From Candidatus Tayloriibacteriota bacterium (GTDB lineage: Bacteria > Patescibacteriota > Minisyncoccia > Phycocordibacterales > PALSA-1337), in contig PLXZ01000003.1 in the NCBI GenBank assembly GCA_003151615.1, positions 3,545-67,544 of the forward strand: a stretch of 64,000 bases of DNA. Direction: 5' to 3'. A model generated the notes under the pieces. That model ran no database searches and was not told the origin of the DNA. It saw only the letters and a program-made list of their open reading frames with translations. The translations under genes were made by a program, and so were the position numbers. Shown here one piece after another: positions 2,964-20,397 of this stretch (positions are counted from its first letter, which is position 1; each line of letters opens with the position of its first letter).

Positions 2964-4991
2964 ATGAACCCTCCAGCAAATAACACAGACAGCAAGACAG
3001 AAAATAAGACTGCGCAGAAAACTCCGGCGTCAGCAATACCGGCATCCGCACAGACGACTGCACCAGCTGGTTTTTCGCCGCGTCCAGGCGGACCTTCGCG
3101 CGGAGGAAATCGCGGCATGGGCGGCGGAATGCGTGGCGGCTCACGAGGCGGTTCTCGCGGAGGCGGAGGGGGTATGAGAAGCGGAGGTTCACGGGGCGGA
3201 CGGAATGACCGACGCCCGGGCCCGCGTCCCGCAATGACTCAGATTCATAAACCTGTTGAAGACAGCGTTCCGCCGCTCGCGGCCGATTCGATTCGCATCA
3301 TCCCGCTCGGCGGCGTTGAAGAAATCGGAAAAAACATGACCGCCATCGAATTCGGCGAGGATATCATCGTCATCGACATCGGCTTTCAATTCAAAGACGA
3401 GAGCACTCCCGGCATCGACTATATTTTGCCGAACACAAAATATTTGGAAGAAAGAAAAGGTAAAATCCGCGCGGTCATCGTGACCCACGGCCACCTCGAC
3501 CATATCGGCGGAATCCCCTATATCATGCCGCGCATCGGCAATCCGCCTTTGTATACCCGCCTCCTCACTTCGATTTTGATCAAAAAGAAGCAAGAAGAAT
3601 TTCCGCATGAACAGCCGCTCGACATCAAGCTCGTCGAAAAAGACGAATCAATCACCCTCGGCAAATTGAAGGTGAAGTTTTTCGCGGTGACCCACACCAT
3701 TCCTGATGCCATGGGAATCATCGTCGAAACTCCGTACGGCGACATCGTTCACACGGGAGACCTTAAACTCGACCATGTTGACGGCGTACCGACGGACGAG
3801 GAAGAAGCGGAATACGACAAAAAATTCAAAAACCGAAACGTGCTCATGCTCATGGCCGATTCGACGAACGTGGAAAATCCCGGTTTCTCGACTCCGGAAA
3901 AATTGGTGCACAAAAATATCGAAGAAATCATAAAAAATGTGAAGGGACGTTTGATCGTCAGTACTTTCGCATCGCTTTTCGAGCGAACCTTGAAAATCGT
4001 GGAGCTCGCCGAAAAATACGGAAAAAAAGTCTGCGTCGAAGGCCGTTCGATGAAAAACAATATTGAAATCGCGATGAAACTCGGTTTGCTCAAGCCGAAA
4101 AAAGATACTTTGATTACGGCCGAACAAATCGACCAATTCCCTCCTGAAAGGATTATCATTCTGGCGACCGGTGCTCAAGGCGACGAATTCGGCGCAATCA
4201 TGCGCATTTCAAATAAAACGCATAAAAGCATCCGCATCACAAAACGCGACACTATTTTGCTTTCGTCATCGGTCGTTCCGGGCAATGAACGCGCGGTTCA
4301 ACGATTAAAGGACAACCTGTCACGCCAAGGCGCGCACATCATCCACTATCGCATGGCGGAAATTCACTCGTCCGGACATGCCAATAAAGACGAAACGGCC
4401 TGGATCCACAAGAAAATCCATCCGCGGTTCTTCATGCCGGTTCACGGATACCATTATATGTTGCGCGTGCACGGCGATCTCGCCCGCGACGCGAACAATT
4501 TGCCTGAAGACGCAATCATCATCCCGGACAATGGTTCAGTCGTTGAAATCCAGGGACTTTCGCTGGGCGGCGGCATTGACAAAAAAAGTCCCGACGCAAA
4601 AATCGTCAAGCTCGAACAGAAGGCCCCGTCCGGCATCGTTATGGTTGACGGTTTCTCGGTCGGCGACATTCAGGACGTGGTCATCCGCGACCGACAGGCT
4701 TTGGCACAGGACGGAATCTTCATCGTCTTCGCAATGATCAATGCCCAGACCGGCAAGCTCCGCAAATCCCCCGACATCATTTCCCGAGGCTTCGTCTATC
4801 TGCGCGAATCGCAGGAACTTCTCCATCAGGCGCGCCTCGTCATCAAAAATACCATCGAACAATCAACAAAAGGCCAAAACCCAATCAACATGGATTATGT
4901 AAAAGGCGCAATTACCGAAGACATCAGCAAGTTTTTGCTGCAGAAAACAGCGAAGCGACCGATTGTCATTCCGGTGCTGTTGACGATTTAG
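2964..4991 (+). CDS. rnj: Ribonuclease J (metallo-beta-lactamase/beta-CASP RNase) with RGG-rich N-terminal extension
   Basis: HGHLDHIGG zinc-binding motif, a beta-CASP region and an RNase J C-terminal domain. The first ~95 aa are low-complexity Gly/Arg-rich (RGG repeats). Confidence 0.9.
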   Translation: MNPPANNTDSKTENKTAQKTPASAIPASAQTTAPAGFSPRPGGPSRGGNRGMGGGMRGGSRGGSRGGGGGMRSGGSRGGRNDRRPGPRPAMTQIHKPVEDSVPPLAADSIRIIPLGGVEEIGKNMTAIEFGEDIIVIDIGFQFKDESTPGIDYILPNTKYLEERKGKIRAVIVTHGHLDHIGGIPYIMPRIGNPPLYTRLLTSILIKKKQEEFPHEQPLDIKLVEKDESITLGKLKVKFFAVTHTIPDAMGIIVETPYGDIVHTGDLKLDHVDGVPTDEEEAEYDKKFKNRNVLMLMADSTNVENPGFSTPEKLVHKNIEEIIKNVKGRLIVSTFASLFERTLKIVELAEKYGKKVCVEGRSMKNNIEIAMKLGLLKPKKDTLITAEQIDQFPPERIIILATGAQGDEFGAIMRISNKTHKSIRITKRDTILLSSSVVPGNERAVQRLKDNLSRQGAHIIHYRMAEIHSSGHANKDETAWIHKKIHPRFFMPVHGYHYMLRVHGDLARDANNLPEDAIIIPDNGSVVEIQGLSLGGGIDKKSPDAKIVKLEQKAPSGIVMVDGFSVGDIQDVVIRDRQALAQDGIFIVFAMINAQTGKLRKSPDIISRGFVYLRESQELLHQARLVIKNTIEQSTKGQNPINMDYVKGAITEDISKFLLQKTAKRPIVIPVLLTI

Positions 4992-4993
4992 TC

Positions 4994-5146
4994 TCTAGAT
5001 ACATTAAGTACAAGGAACCCGTATATACACTTTTCAAGAGACACGGAAATTTGAGGGCTTCAAATTTCCTCACCTCCGGACCGACGTCCGTCGGCAGGTC
5101 TCTCGTAAAGTATATATACGGGTTCCTAGTGCTTGTATATCTAGAT
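4994..5146. repeat. 153-bp nested imperfect palindrome (MITE-like or bidirectional terminator structure)
   Basis: Outer arms tctagatacattaagtacaaggaacccgtatatacacttt (4994-5033) and aaagtatatatacgggttcctagtgcttgtatatctaga (5107-5145) are near-perfect inverted repeats. Inner hairpins gaaatttgagggcttcaaatttc and ccgacgtccgtcgg lie inside. The element sits between the convergent rnj and the 5218..6144 gene. Confidence 0.7.
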
Positions 5147-5217
5147 TAATAGTCAACAAAAAAAGCAATCAGAAATGACTCCGACTGCTTGTGAAATAAC
5201 GAACGCGCTACGACATT

Positions 5218-6144
5218 TCAAACTGACACAAGTTTTTCGCATTTGTTGTCAATGTAGAAGCTTGCCTGACCGACAAATGAAGCAAGTCCGGCAAGCAACG
5301 TGAGCGACTGGAGCGGACTGTCAACATTGTGACAGGTAAACTCGCGGCCTTCACCCGGACGACGGGAATAAAACCCTGTGTTGATGCCGCATGCGTCACC
5401 GGGAACAGTAAGCCCAATGGAACTGGAATCGCAGTCAACACGGATCGTCCCGCGAGCATGCGTATATCCATTCCCCCACATGTGCGTTTCCGCGGCAATC
5501 ATTGCTTCAAGGACATTTTTTACGATAATATGCTTCAACTCAAACGGATTTGAAGCGACATAATCAATAAAATCGGCACCGAAATAACCGTCGACTCCAC
5601 TGCCGTGCTGGCCATGCCGAGCTATTACGGAGACAGTAACATGTTGATGTTCCTTGGCGGAAGTGTCCTCGTCAACATCAAGAATTGCGAATAACAAACC
5701 AAGGCTGGAGGTAACGGCATACGCCGCCCGCCAGTCGTAAGTGTGTTGTATTTTGCTACCGTCGCAACGCAGGCATTTTTCGCCTTCACGCCATTCGTCA
5801 ATGCTTTCGCCGGTGCCGGCGCAATGTTCACAGGTAAAATGCGTCGGCATTTTGATGTGAGGAAGCAAAACACGAAACTCAAGATAATCCCCTGAGTCAC
5901 GCGTCTTTTGAAGCGCATGGTTGAAACCAAAAGAATCGCCCCCCGCAAGATCACCTGAAAAAGAATCAAAAAATGTATCCAAATCATGCGTTTGGATTAT
6001 GTTTTGAATCCACGGCGCATCCCTGGAAATAACTTTGACGAAACGAAGACAATCGCGATGAACGTCAACGATAATTGCCTCTTGATTGCTATCCCAGCGT
6101 AAATGATACTTCCGCGGGATACGGTCATACTGCATTAATTTCAT
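5218..6144 (-). CDS. Hypothetical protein with DnaJ-type CxxCxGxG zinc-finger hairpin
   Basis: 308 aa. CEHCAGTGE-x13-CLRCDG matches the CR-type zinc-finger repeat. I recognised nothing in the rest of the protein. Confidence 0.5.
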   Translation of the reverse strand: MKLMQYDRIPRKYHLRWDSNQEAIIVDVHRDCLRFVKVISRDAPWIQNIIQTHDLDTFFDSFSGDLAGGDSFGFNHALQKTRDSGDYLEFRVLLPHIKMPTHFTCEHCAGTGESIDEWREGEKCLRCDGSKIQHTYDWRAAYAVTSSLGLLFAILDVDEDTSAKEHQHVTVSVIARHGQHGSGVDGYFGADFIDYVASNPFELKHIIVKNVLEAMIAAETHMWGNGYTHARGTIRVDCDSSSIGLTVPGDACGINTGFYSRRPGEGREFTCHNVDSPLQSLTLLAGLASFVGQASFYIDNKCEKLVSV

Positions 6145-6275
6145 AAGAACCCTTTTGTTAAAGATTGACTGAGATTAGAATACACCTTCACTAGGTTTAG
6201 TCAAATGAACGCAAAAATTTTAGTAAAATTTTATTCTTTTTTTAGAGAAAATTCATTTCGATTTGATATCGTAAA

Positions 6276-6653
6276 TTGATGTCAAAAGAAGAATTAAAAG
6301 AATTCATAAAAAATACTCGTGAAAAATACAAACATATAAGGTACGTAGAATGTCCAGCCTTTGGAGGTGAAAAAATATATTTTACCAAACATGGATTCAA
6401 TCATCTTTTGAGAAAAGGTCGAATACCGCGAAGTATGGACGAACAAATACGGAGACTCAAATTACTAAGATATGTCGTTAAAATAATTGAGAAAAACCAT
6501 GCATTTGAGAGTTATCGAAAAGCTGAAAAACTCAATTCTATTCTGCATTTCTGGTCTTTTAAAAAGGTCATCGCCGGTAAAACCATTTTTGTAGTTATTT
6601 GCCAAAGAAACGACAAACCTAAAACATTCCTAAGCATCATGGATAAAAATTAA
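6276..6653 (+). CDS. Hypothetical protein (AT-rich gene)
   Basis: 125-aa ORF. It is divergent from 5218..6144 and shares an AT-rich promoter region with it. A clear intrinsic terminator follows. Confidence 0.5.
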   Translation: MMSKEELKEFIKNTREKYKHIRYVECPAFGGEKIYFTKHGFNHLLRKGRIPRSMDEQIRRLKLLRYVVKIIEKNHAFESYRKAEKLNSILHFWSFKKVIAGKTIFVVICQRNDKPKTFLSIMDKN

Positions 6654-6669
6654 GCAGTTGACCATACGC

Positions 6670-6697
6670 GCAAAAGACCCCGAAGGGTCTTTTCATA
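6670..6697 (+). terminator. Rho-independent terminator
   Basis: aaaagaccccgaagggtcttttc: GC stem, cgaa loop, then a T-run. Confidence 0.7.
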
Positions 6698-6854
6698 GTG
6701 TCCACCATCAGCGACAATGCCGATAGAATGTATGGTGCGCAAAACCATCAGACGCGAACATTATTGCCATTAATAGTAATCTTTTGAAAAAAATTTGTCA
6801 ACAGATTGATTATTGATAACTCTGCTATAATTATCAGCATAAACTTCCAATAAA

Positions 6855-8033
6855 ATGCGCCACCACCCGTCGATCAATCATCCGACAAAGATTGTCTACA
6901 CGATCCTTCTCATCGGTTTCATTTATACCCTGCACCTGACATTGCCGGTGTACATCGCGTCGAGCTTCCTTTCGACCTTCACAGACGAAAACACGGTCGG
7001 ACTGCTCTATACGATTGCGTCGCTTTTCACTATCCTTGGCCTGTTTTTGATCGGTCCGGTTTTGACGCGCTTCGGCAACTATCGGACTTCTCTGGCGCTG
7101 ATTGCGATCCAGCTTCTGCTCTTTTTGGGCTTCATAACGGCCACTTCGTTCAATGCGATTGCGGTCATATTCATCGTGTCGACGGCGATCGTGGCTCTTA
7201 TGGGATTGAACCTCGACGTTTTTTTGGAGACCTATTCCGAAGTTCGCAACACCGGCGGCATCCGCGGTTTATATATGGCGATAAACAATGTGGCTTGGAT
7301 TTTGGCACCACTTTTGGGCGCGGCGCTCCTTGTCGGCATTCATTACCGCAATGTGTATGTTGCGGCATTCACGCTTCTTTTTGTTCTGCTCTATCTTATA
7401 TATAAAAATCTGCGGCATTTCGAAGATCCGCATTACGGACATCTGTCCTTTCATCAGACGCTCGGACGTGTATTTAAAAACAAGGATCTCTCCAAACTTT
7501 TTGCGGCAAACATTATTTTGAACACCTTCTACAGCTGGATGGTCATTTACATGCCAATCTATTTGTACAAAACGATGGGCTTCAGCTGGGACAGCATCGG
7601 CATCATATTGACGGTCATGCTTTTGCCATTCGTCATATTTCAATATCCGGCCGGCCGATTGGCTGACAGCGGCTGGGGCGAGAAGAAAATCATGAGCCTC
7701 GGCTTTCTCATCATGGGCCTTTCCTGCTGTGCCCTGGCGTTTATAACGACCAACAGCCTCATTGTGTGGGCCGTGGCGCTGTTTGTGACGCGCATAGGAG
7801 CATCGATCGCCGAAGTCATGATTGAAGCCTATTTCTTCAAAAAAGTCAGCCCAGAAAATGCGGATTTACTGACATCATTCCGCGTGACGCGATACGGCGC
7901 ATACATCATCGCTCCGGCAATCACCGCCATCGGCATTTATTACGGCATCAATAATGGAAACATTTTTATTGTCCTCGGCTTGATTATTTTCTGGGCACTG
8001 CGATACACGCTGACGATTACGGATGTGGTTTAG
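6855..8033 (+). CDS. MFS transporter
   Basis: 392 aa with about 12 predicted TM helices and MFS-type loop motifs (for example GRLADSGWGEKK between TM helices). Confidence 0.8.
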   Translation: MRHHPSINHPTKIVYTILLIGFIYTLHLTLPVYIASSFLSTFTDENTVGLLYTIASLFTILGLFLIGPVLTRFGNYRTSLALIAIQLLLFLGFITATSFNAIAVIFIVSTAIVALMGLNLDVFLETYSEVRNTGGIRGLYMAINNVAWILAPLLGAALLVGIHYRNVYVAAFTLLFVLLYLIYKNLRHFEDPHYGHLSFHQTLGRVFKNKDLSKLFAANIILNTFYSWMVIYMPIYLYKTMGFSWDSIGIILTVMLLPFVIFQYPAGRLADSGWGEKKIMSLGFLIMGLSCCALAFITTNSLIVWAVALFVTRIGASIAEVMIEAYFFKKVSPENADLLTSFRVTRYGAYIIAPAITAIGIYYGINNGNIFIVLGLIIFWALRYTLTITDVV

Positions 8034-8278: not shown

Positions 8279-8321
8279 TAGATTTTTATTATAGCATGAG
8301 TGCCGGGAGTGCTTTTTCCTT

Positions 8322-8440
8322 CATCAGCATGCAAATGCGAATGCGAAAATCAGACCCTATATTTTAAGCCATACTTTGTGCGTAATTTATATTAAATTCG
8401 CATTTGCATGCTGATGATGTTTAAAGAAAGACTCGCTCCC
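8322..8440. repeat. Hairpin-forming repeat element, copy A
   Basis: catcagcatgcaaatgcgaatgcgaaaat ... attaaattcgcatttgcatgctgatgatg forms a long stem, followed by the tail tttaaagaaagactcgc. A second copy lies at 10569-10752. Confidence 0.8.
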
Positions 8441-10507: not shown

Positions 10508-10568
10508 ATTATAACAGAAAATATCATATCAAATTATGTCAGCGCGGGATTGATATGTCTTTTTTCTT

Positions 10569-10752
10569 CACCATCATGCAAATGCGAATGCGAAAATCTC
10601 GGGTCATATTTAGAGGCATATTTTATATGAAGAAGATATTAAATTCGCATTTGCGAATCGGGAATTTTGGGTCGAGGTTTTAAGCCATACTTTCGCTGTC
10701 AAAATAGAGTTTTTCGCATTTGCATGATGGTGATGTTTAAAGAGAGACTCCG
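10569..10752. repeat. Hairpin-forming repeat element, copy B (expanded)
   Basis: The arms are the same as copy A (gcaaatgcgaatgcgaaaat / cgcatttgcatg) but read caccatcatg/catgatggtg instead of catcagcatg/catgctgatg, so pairing is preserved. The internal segment is duplicated, and the tail is tttaaagagagactccgc. Confidence 0.8.
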
Positions 10753-19837: not shown

Positions 19838-20397
19838 ACCATGAATTATAGCCCAAAAATGATCTTCAGGAAAGGCATTTTAAAAACCTATTTTTGTGGA
19901 TAACTAAGCAACAATAAGCCTATTTTTAGTCCTAAAATGATCATCTTTCAAATAAAATTTCAATGTTTTAATTGATTTCAATTATTTTATTTTGAAGATA
20001 TAATATATCAAGTTTAATCCTTTAAAATGCTGGCGATAGGGATACTTGGACCCTGGGTTCTGTATTGGTTAGGATCTACCTTCTTTTAGCCTTCCTGAAT
20101 AGTCGCTTTCTCGCAAGGCGATTGTTCGGGGAAGCGCATAAAAGTCGAGTTCCCTAATTATCAGAACAATTTCAAGATATAACAATGTCAAGAAGAACTA
20201 GTGCTAAAGTTGCCTCTGAAGCATCTAAGGTACTGAGAGATCCCAAGGCTACCAAAGTGGAGAAATCCGCGGCGGCTAGTGCAATCTCTCAGAGATCCAA
20301 GAAGTAGTTAATACTTCTACTTATTGCCAGCATTTTAGTGGATTAAAATCTCGCACCTTTTCATGTATAATATGCTGACAAGTAACAAATAAAGATA

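Follow-up and report, generated by a model that had tools for sequence, protein, structure and literature searches.

Stabilizers of the REP type are 3' stem-loops that block 3'-to-5' exonucleases, and repeats of the ERIC and Correia type can change mRNA stability. Classical compensatory evolution of such stems is expected to be slow, because single mismatches are deleterious, and to be biased toward transitions mediated by G.U pairs. Quasi-palindrome template switching has been documented experimentally in E. coli (PMC7202029), and template switching has also been suggested as a way in which RNA stems are made and preserved (PMC8794818). Here, we describe a nested, branched palindrome of ~181 nt (positions 4978-5158) at the 3' end of rnj, the ribonuclease J gene, in a 64-kb stretch of contig PLXZ01000003.1 (the window, to which all positions refer unless another locus is named). 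The host is a member of the Patescibacteria (candidate phyla radiation, CPR) whose genome was recovered from a metagenome, on a scaffold of 498 kb.

We assign a probability of roughly 0.5 to the reading that this element is a single-locus, vertically inherited quasi-palindrome whose arms are copied onto each other by template switching and which likely forms the 3' hairpin of the rnj mRNA. The evidence comes from the comparison of the window lineage (W) with its sister lineage (B), in which the two arms of the palindrome have changed together.

RESULTS

Paired arms changed together in two sister lineages

Lineage B was reached through the 90% cluster of ORF308, the open reading frame (ORF) that converges on rnj in the window, and is represented by four contigs from four samples (L061-L064; L-numbers denote the loci and assemblies of relatives), all four of which were identical in this region. 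W and B were mutually closest, with an identity of 66% at the fourfold-degenerate sites of rnj compared with 48-60% to every other lineage. The gene order in B is the same, the palindrome occupies precisely the same pair of junctions between homologous flanks, and the B copy is thus orthologous to the W copy. The two copies are ~71-73% identical; the fold is kept, and it is more stable in B.

A structure-guided alignment of W and B, checked against the actual sequences, yielded 74 pairs. These comprised 67 Watson-Crick pairs, 1 G.U pair, and 4 mismatches in W, and 72 Watson-Crick pairs, 2 G.U pairs, and no mismatches in B. Eighteen pairs (25%) were altered on both sides and none of them was broken in B, while each of the three one-sided differences was a mismatch in W that is paired in B. 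Under a null model that let the right arm change on its own at the observed rate, 44.4 ± 2.7 of 72 pairs were kept, with a maximum of 55 in 20,000 trials, against 72 of 72 observed. The signal persisted in the 46 pairs that were consistent with a MAFFT alignment (95.7% paired vs 35-45% with slid partners; 9 double changes vs 0-2), and RNAalifold reported 13 compensated and 0 broken pairs. An earlier note on this DNA, made from the sequence alone, had reasoned that a single copy without conservation would suggest an incidental terminator; what we found instead was a copy at the same site in B that carries 18 double substitutions.

The changes were distributed over the whole structure, which is described here from its base to its tip on the + strand. 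In the outermost stem (S0), the last four sense codons of rnj (TGTTGACGATT, 4978-4988, within the coding sequence) form the left arm and pair with AATAGTCAACA (5148-5158) at 10 of 11 positions; three of these pairs carry double changes between W and B, and their left members are synonymous sites of rnj. Folds and hand alignment place the rnj stop codon TAG and the following TC (4989-4993) in an internal bulge between S0 and S1, so that the stop codon lies inside the pairing span. The S1 tips, TCTAGATA (4994-5001) and TATCTAGA (5138-5145), are complementary at 8 of 8 positions and read TGTAGGTA and TACCTACA in B, a difference of two double substitutions. Stem S2 joins AAGTAC (5006-5011) to GTGCTT (5129-5134) through pairs that include a U.G wobble conserved in B; on the right side (5129-5145), delimited by the inverted-repeat search and the W/B alignment, a 3-nt internal loop separates S2 from S1. 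The 30-nt arms of S3/S4 (5013-5042 and 5098-5127) pair at 27 of 30 positions in W and 30 of 30 in B, with five Watson-Crick to Watson-Crick double changes and three W mismatches that are paired in B. At the tip, hairpin H1 (GGAAATTTGA-GGGCT-TCAAATTTCC, 5045-5069) has all 10 stem positions paired and shows three double changes in B (GGATATTTTT/AAAAATATCC), whereas the folded hairpin H2 (CC..CGGAC-CGAC-GTCCG..GG, 5073-5094) has a core stem CGGAC/GTCCG (5077-5090) in which three of the five pairs changed on both sides in B.

The boundaries and parts given in the earlier note needed some adjustment. The core ends at 5145 rather than 5146, and the pairing runs outward to 4978-5158. Its near-perfect outer arms were recovered (4994-5042 against 5098-5145, with perfect 8-nt tips and 37-nt core arms that are 86% complementary in an inverted-repeat search), as was the perfect 10-bp stem of the first inner hairpin; the CCGACG/CGTCGG stem proposed for the second is sterically impossible and gives way to CGGAC/GTCCG.

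Folding supported the structure on both strands. The 171-nt region folded at -76.4 kcal/mol on the + strand (z = -10.1) and at -84.2 kcal/mol on the - strand (z = -13.2), with 0 of 200 shuffles as good in either case, and the full span gave z = -12.1 in W and -105 kcal/mol with z = -16.9 in B. Both copies adopt the same shape, namely a rod of four stacked stems with two small hairpins at its tip. The nested palindrome reported at this convergent junction is therefore real and, at ~181 nt and with a fold well beyond that of shuffled controls, far larger than an ordinary terminator, as had been stated. The 226-nt spacer is identical in an independent assembly (L060); an assembly fold-back artefact was ruled out by the imperfect arms together with the identity of the two independent assemblies. 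Rfam 15 gave no match at gathering thresholds over the entire window, and at E ≤ 10 on 4900-5260 it gave two chance-level matches only, both outside the element. A hidden small ORF was also rejected, as only ORFs of 32-35 aa with non-ATG starts are available and the W/B alignment contains 16 gapped columns.

The coding end of rnj shares in these changes. In its last six codons, W differs from B at all six third positions (2 of 389 windows reached this extreme). Of eight lineages, it is B that stands apart at this end of the gene, and its changes lengthen the stem to 16 bp, into the adjoining A-run. We count both the third-position changes and the extension of the stem in B as fitting template switching.

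Near-neutral rate and spectrum of the stem changes

Between W and B, neutral divergence at fourfold sites was 35.9%, with a transition fraction of 0.50, while the stem columns were 27.1% and the unpaired columns 33% divergent. The 17 double changes that replaced a Watson-Crick pair with a different one were divided into 8 of transition type and 9 of transversion type, a spectrum indistinguishable from the 80:81 seen at fourfold sites (Fisher p = 1.0). Neutrality would predict that ~13% of pairs are changed on both sides, with only a fraction of these complementary; the observed compensated share of 25% is several-fold more. Given a near-neutral rate, a neutral spectrum, and an excess of compensated pairs, a mutational process that alters both arms at once is the simplest explanation, and from this pattern we infer arm-to-arm copying by replication template switching.

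Stem changes with a near-neutral rate and a neutral spectrum can arise without selection, and they are thus also what one would see if the palindrome were functionless, that is, made and re-perfected by template switching and tolerated by the lineage, with any effect on rnj being incidental. Two further points speak for this explanation: close relatives manage without the element, and matched arm changes are also seen in another palindrome family of this genome, unrelated to the element. However, the rod, H1, and H2 are all intact in W and B across ~36% neutral divergence, B has lengthened its outer stem through synonymous changes in rnj, and bacterial genomes tend to lose long palindromes by deletion. 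We regard the functionless palindrome as unlikely, albeit as the likeliest of the alternatives.

Copy number and comparison with a transposable element

[quoted passage not shown] We searched ~71 kb of host DNA, comprising the 64-kb window and an extra 7 kb from L001, as well as 402 kb of loci from relatives, the latter with a covariance model made from the W and B orthologs. Within the window, a mismatch-tolerant pattern search, blastn-short, and nhmmer returned the element itself as the only match; the extra 7 kb held no copy, and the covariance model found just the two orthologs in the 402 kb. Neither of two exact arm patterns (the arm core and the outer terminal inverted repeat) matched any of 185,579 species genomes or any viral contig, the arm-core pattern had none in JGI metagenome contigs, and the inner-hairpin pattern had none in viral contigs. 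Tolerant BLAST of phages and plasmids gave nothing credible, with one chance-level match to a Sulfolobus virus (E = 0.1).

Terminal inverted repeats are present (4994-5042/5098-5145), but the complementarity spans nearly the whole element rather than the termini alone. The flanks themselves also pair with each other, as the S0 arms show with their three double substitutions between W and B, and the element and the inverted repeat consequently do not share their ends, contrary to what a MITE would have. In W, an exact flanking direct repeat TAGTC had P = 0.19 and a gapped repeat GATT(AA)TAGTC had a marginal P = 0.03, whereas no direct repeat was seen in the B flanks, which were judged by eye only and left unscored. 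The reading as a MITE family is not supported, since no second copy was found in the searched DNA and the complementarity runs past the supposed inverted-repeat tips into rnj, where it covaries.

A further alternative is a solitary MITE, inserted once past the rnj stop codon in the ancestor of W and B and now immobile or domesticated. The junction holds ~150 bp of extra DNA relative to that of L007, the arms resemble terminal inverted repeats, the gapped flanking repeat is marginal, another two-copy palindromic repeat exists in the genome, and CTAG, which is 11-fold depleted in the genome, has 3 of its 22 occurrences within the element, a hint of foreign origin. Against these stand the empty searches in host DNA, relatives' loci, and the genome, metagenome, viral, phage, and plasmid collections, as well as the lack in B of CTAG tips and of any direct repeat visible by eye. 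Moreover, a transposon end cannot explain complementarity and covariation inside rnj, and the arms of a dead MITE should decay independently, which these do not. We therefore consider a solitary MITE doubtful, although a single MITE insertion followed by homogenization of its arms is a possible alternative origin of the palindrome.

The scarcity of CTAG was an observation in its own right. Against ~248 expected occurrences, the window contains 22, and among palindromes of 6 bp CCTAGG, GCTAGC, and TAGCTA are missing from it, while AGATCT, CTATAG, and GGTACC occur once each. TCTAGA occurs twice in the 64 kb, in both cases as a tip of the element, and the AT-rich spacer of the neighboring gene islet holds a fourth CTAG at 6191. 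A functional motif in the CTAG/TCTAGA tips was rejected because they are specific to W, the tip in B being TGTAGGTA.

History of the junction between rnj and its neighbor

The gene rnj (2964-4991, + strand) encodes an RNase J of 675 aa with Pfam matches to RNase_J_b_CASP, RNase_J_C, and Lactamase_B, and its homologs are named ribonuclease J in Patescibacteria. Its ancestral direct neighbor is a major facilitator superfamily (MFS) transporter gene (6855-8033, + strand), which begins ~10 nt past the rnj stop codon in L013, L006, and L018; the gap is 100 nt in L002 and 46 nt in L004. In the window, the interval measures 1.86 kb and contains the palindrome, ORF308, an AT-rich divergent promoter region, ORF125, and a new MFS promoter. 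The ~10-nt gap in the nearest outgroups indicates that this interval is derived. The element is present at the same site in B and absent from the junctions of L013, L006, L018, L007, L003, and L004, the rnj junctions of L003 and L004 having been inspected for it.

ORF308 (5218-6144, - strand; 308 aa) is convergent with rnj and belongs to a CPR-only family of 30 proteins; it carries a Zn knuckle, and no match was found for its fold. Between it and the palindrome lies its own intrinsic terminator (5153-5190, - strand), detected in a terminator scan and identical to B at 45 of 51 positions, in which a stem at 5190-5163 is followed by a U-tract, so that it works one way only. The U-tract corresponds to the A7 run at 5158-5164, and the earlier statement that no T-run flanks the palindrome accordingly holds for the + strand but not for the - strand. 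L007 has the same convergent layout of rnj and ORF308, with a spacer of 83 nt that holds an ordinary bidirectional terminator only. The idea that the palindrome is a companion of ORF308 was rejected, given that the ORF308 homologs of L007, L008-10, L012, and L065-66 occur without it.

The second islet gene, ORF125 (6279-6653, + strand), evolves fast: its protein is 53% identical between W and B, compared with 91-97% for its neighbors, and 11 homologs were found. Its match to LPD3, a domain of polyvalent proteins, is weak (E = 0.004) and hints at a mobile-element origin. Direct (att-like) repeats bounding the ORF308-ORF125 islet were sought without success (P ≥ 0.12, not conserved in B). Viewed across lineages, the junction (window 4992-6854 and the loci L002, L003, L004, L006, L007, and L013) forms a small hotspot at which gene content varies, in at least five states: the ~10-nt pair, a spacer of 46-100 nt with a new MFS promoter, a gene of 266 aa (L003), ORF308 alone (L007), and ORF308 with ORF125 and the palindrome (W and B).

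In L002, which has no ORF308 islet, a 58-nt hairpin (L002 5495-5560; AAGTAC..AGAAACCCGCA / TGCGGGTTCT..TACTT) directly follows the rnj stop codon. The covariance model scored it against the outer stem of the element at 14.3 bits, with E ~0.001 for that junction alone, but the likeness was not significant in Smith-Waterman shuffles (59-105 of 1000 were as good), and we did not adopt the notion of an expanded ancestral rnj hairpin for this reason. The L002 hairpin may be a truncated relative of the element, which would date the hairpin before the islet.

At the other end of the gene, RNase J carries an N-terminal extension of ~85 residues (window 2964-3230) that is found in few homologs only (P0007, P0009, P0015, and P0020; 76-78% identity). 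Most RNase J matches, including those that are 92-93% identical, cover only 87-88% of the query.

A possible site acting at the DNA level

Pairing and fold energy show no consistent strand preference, which would suit a site that acts as double-stranded or extruded DNA rather than as RNA, such as the target of a recombinase, of a replication or partition factor, or of an attC-like system. A hallmark of attC, namely conserved structure with free sequence, is likewise seen here, and a large serine recombinase gene lies ~8 kb upstream. However, the attC core sites RYYYAAC/GTTRRRY are unmatched: the boxes that can be read from the sequence (GTTGAC...GTCAAC in W, GTTAAT-type in B) fail the consensus and stand in reverse order. 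No integrase, cassette array, or adjacent recombinase was found among the neighboring genes, ORF308 shows neither a nuclease nor a recombinase fold, the serine recombinase is set apart from the element by syntenic core genes, and no direct repeats bound the islet. A DNA-level site is in our view very improbable. The serine recombinase gene itself (L001 1806-3575, outside the window) encodes 589 aa with Resolvase, Recombinase, and Zn_ribbon_recom domains; it lies upstream of a conserved M48-LemA-SecG-SBP-rnj block, and no link to the palindrome was found.

Other palindromes in the window

The second, unrelated palindromic family has arms of ~20-31 nt built on TGCAAATGCGAA / TTCGCATTTGCA. Its two copies in the window (8312-8426, 115 bp; 10558-10743, 186 bp) are intergenic and ~78% identical, and B holds an orthologous copy in the same MTase-Grx spacer (L061 925-1104). 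By eye, its arms have also changed together (CATCAGCATGCAAATGCGAAT in W vs CATCGTGCAAATGCGAAA in B, with matching right arms). The family was not found in L002, L004, or L006. In addition, a 26-nt inverted repeat with 88% complementarity and ~283 nt between its arms occurs at 20013-20347, with CTAG at 20198 and 20276.

DISCUSSION

The concerted change of the two arms suggests the following history for the junction. An islet carrying ORF308 and ORF125 would first have split the ancestral rnj-MFS pair, and the palindrome would then have arisen in the common ancestor of W and B, when a template switch copied the region just past rnj as its reverse complement. Such an origin would account for the outer stem formed with the last codons of rnj, the absence of a convincing duplication, the absence of any other copy, and the unique sequence of the element. 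Thereafter, a change in one arm could be copied to the other by template switching within the hairpin (quasi-palindrome correction), so that the sequence would drift near the neutral rate while the pairing stays almost perfect, and selection for the fold probably helps to fix the corrected variants. The perfect 30-bp inner stem in B, set against the four mismatches in W, would be explained if the last correction were older in W, which fits template switching.

As for function, no feature was found between the rnj stop codon and the hairpin, which lies directly past it, and the rnj transcript must therefore contain the hairpin. The terminator scan found only the - strand terminator of ORF308 and a weak match in the inner hairpin. 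Because the U-tract of the ORF308 terminator serves the - strand only, unlike the bidirectional terminator of L007, the hairpin is the sole candidate for a 3'-end structure of rnj in W and B. It most likely acts at the RNA level as a 3' stability cap that would protect the rnj mRNA from 3'-to-5' exonucleases, and as an insulator between the convergent genes; it is possibly also a substrate of RNase III. A structured RNA or long terminator-like 3' hairpin, which the earlier note had listed among its options, would thus still be the most plausible function, although the canonical U-tract is absent on the + strand.

A more ambitious version, which we think improbable, would make the hairpin a novel cis-regulatory RNA for the rnj message, built in one template-switch step, in which the stop codon at the base of a ~75-bp duplex would provide feedback on RNase J. 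Whether the 3' cap remains closed would then depend on ribosomes that terminate there, on RNase III, or on RNase J itself. If true, the hairpin would represent feedback control of the main RNA-decay enzyme in this CPR lineage.

Several points weigh against a single-locus, template-switched 3' hairpin of rnj. Only two distinct orthologs are available, and the changes between them are unpolarised, so that single template-switch events are not visible. The copy search reached ~71 kb of a host genome that measures 498 kb or more, and further copies are possible in the at least 430 kb outside it. On the + strand, the hairpin is followed by A7, which sets it apart from a canonical terminator. The signals of the transcribed strand conflict, in that the two non-Watson-Crick pairs of B are G.U on the + strand while two of the W mismatches would be G.U on the - strand, and fold energy favors + in B and - in W; owing to this contradiction, strand assignment from G.U versus A.C pairs and from fold energy was dropped. 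Finally, the element is young and narrowly distributed, and any function it has is dispensable in close relatives.

The element provides a clean case, found in nature, of a long hairpin with branches in which the primary sequence changes at an almost neutral pace and yet the pairing remains perfect. If our interpretation is correct, arm copying even imposes synonymous changes on the neighboring essential gene rnj. It bears on how long stems arise and survive random mutation, and it calls for caution, since abundant compensatory covariation, the usual proof of a selected RNA, can here stem from copying at the DNA level. For CPR biology, it suggests that a tight rnj-MFS junction became a hotspot for accessory genes and that the new 3' end of an essential gene may have been improvised. 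The narrow distribution of the element limits its importance.

Comparison with known systems

Like this element, integron attC sites are imperfect palindromes 3' of an accessory gene, with a structure that is kept, a sequence that is free, and a variable branched tip; unlike them, the element has no R''/R' core sites, integrase, or cassette array, and the ORF308 ortholog of L007 occurs without it. The ERIC/IRU, Correia/NEMIS, and RUP repeats (PMC3184786, PMC2267715), which are MITE-like and palindromic over their whole length, are comparable in being 100-160 bp long, intergenic, often 3' of genes, and folded into one long hairpin upon transcription. They come in multi-copy families whose ends are defined and which, in the case of Correia, show a TA duplication, whereas our element occupies one locus in the searched data, shows no convincing duplication, and pairs into its host gene. 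Bidirectional intrinsic terminators take the same convergent position and presumably do the same job of separating transcripts, as the one at the L007 junction illustrates, but the element lacks a U-tract on its rnj side, exceeds them roughly tenfold in size, and ends in a branched tip, and ORF308 keeps its own small terminator. With the REP/BIME stabilizers it shares a stable 3' stem-loop on the mRNA that would block 3'-to-5' exonucleases, although REPs are ~35 nt long, highly repeated, and conserved in sequence, unlike this element. Template-switch hairpins (PMC8794818, PMC7202029) are known from rRNA and miRNA stems and from short (<20 bp) quasi-palindromes in E. coli reporters, while the present element is branched, extends over ~75 bp at the 3' end of a bacterial gene, and has its proposed mechanism read from two orthologs only. 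The features common to both are reverse-complement arms, compensatory changes of several bases that include transversion flips without a wobble intermediate, imperfect stems that become perfect, and a stem that may reach into neighboring functional sequence.
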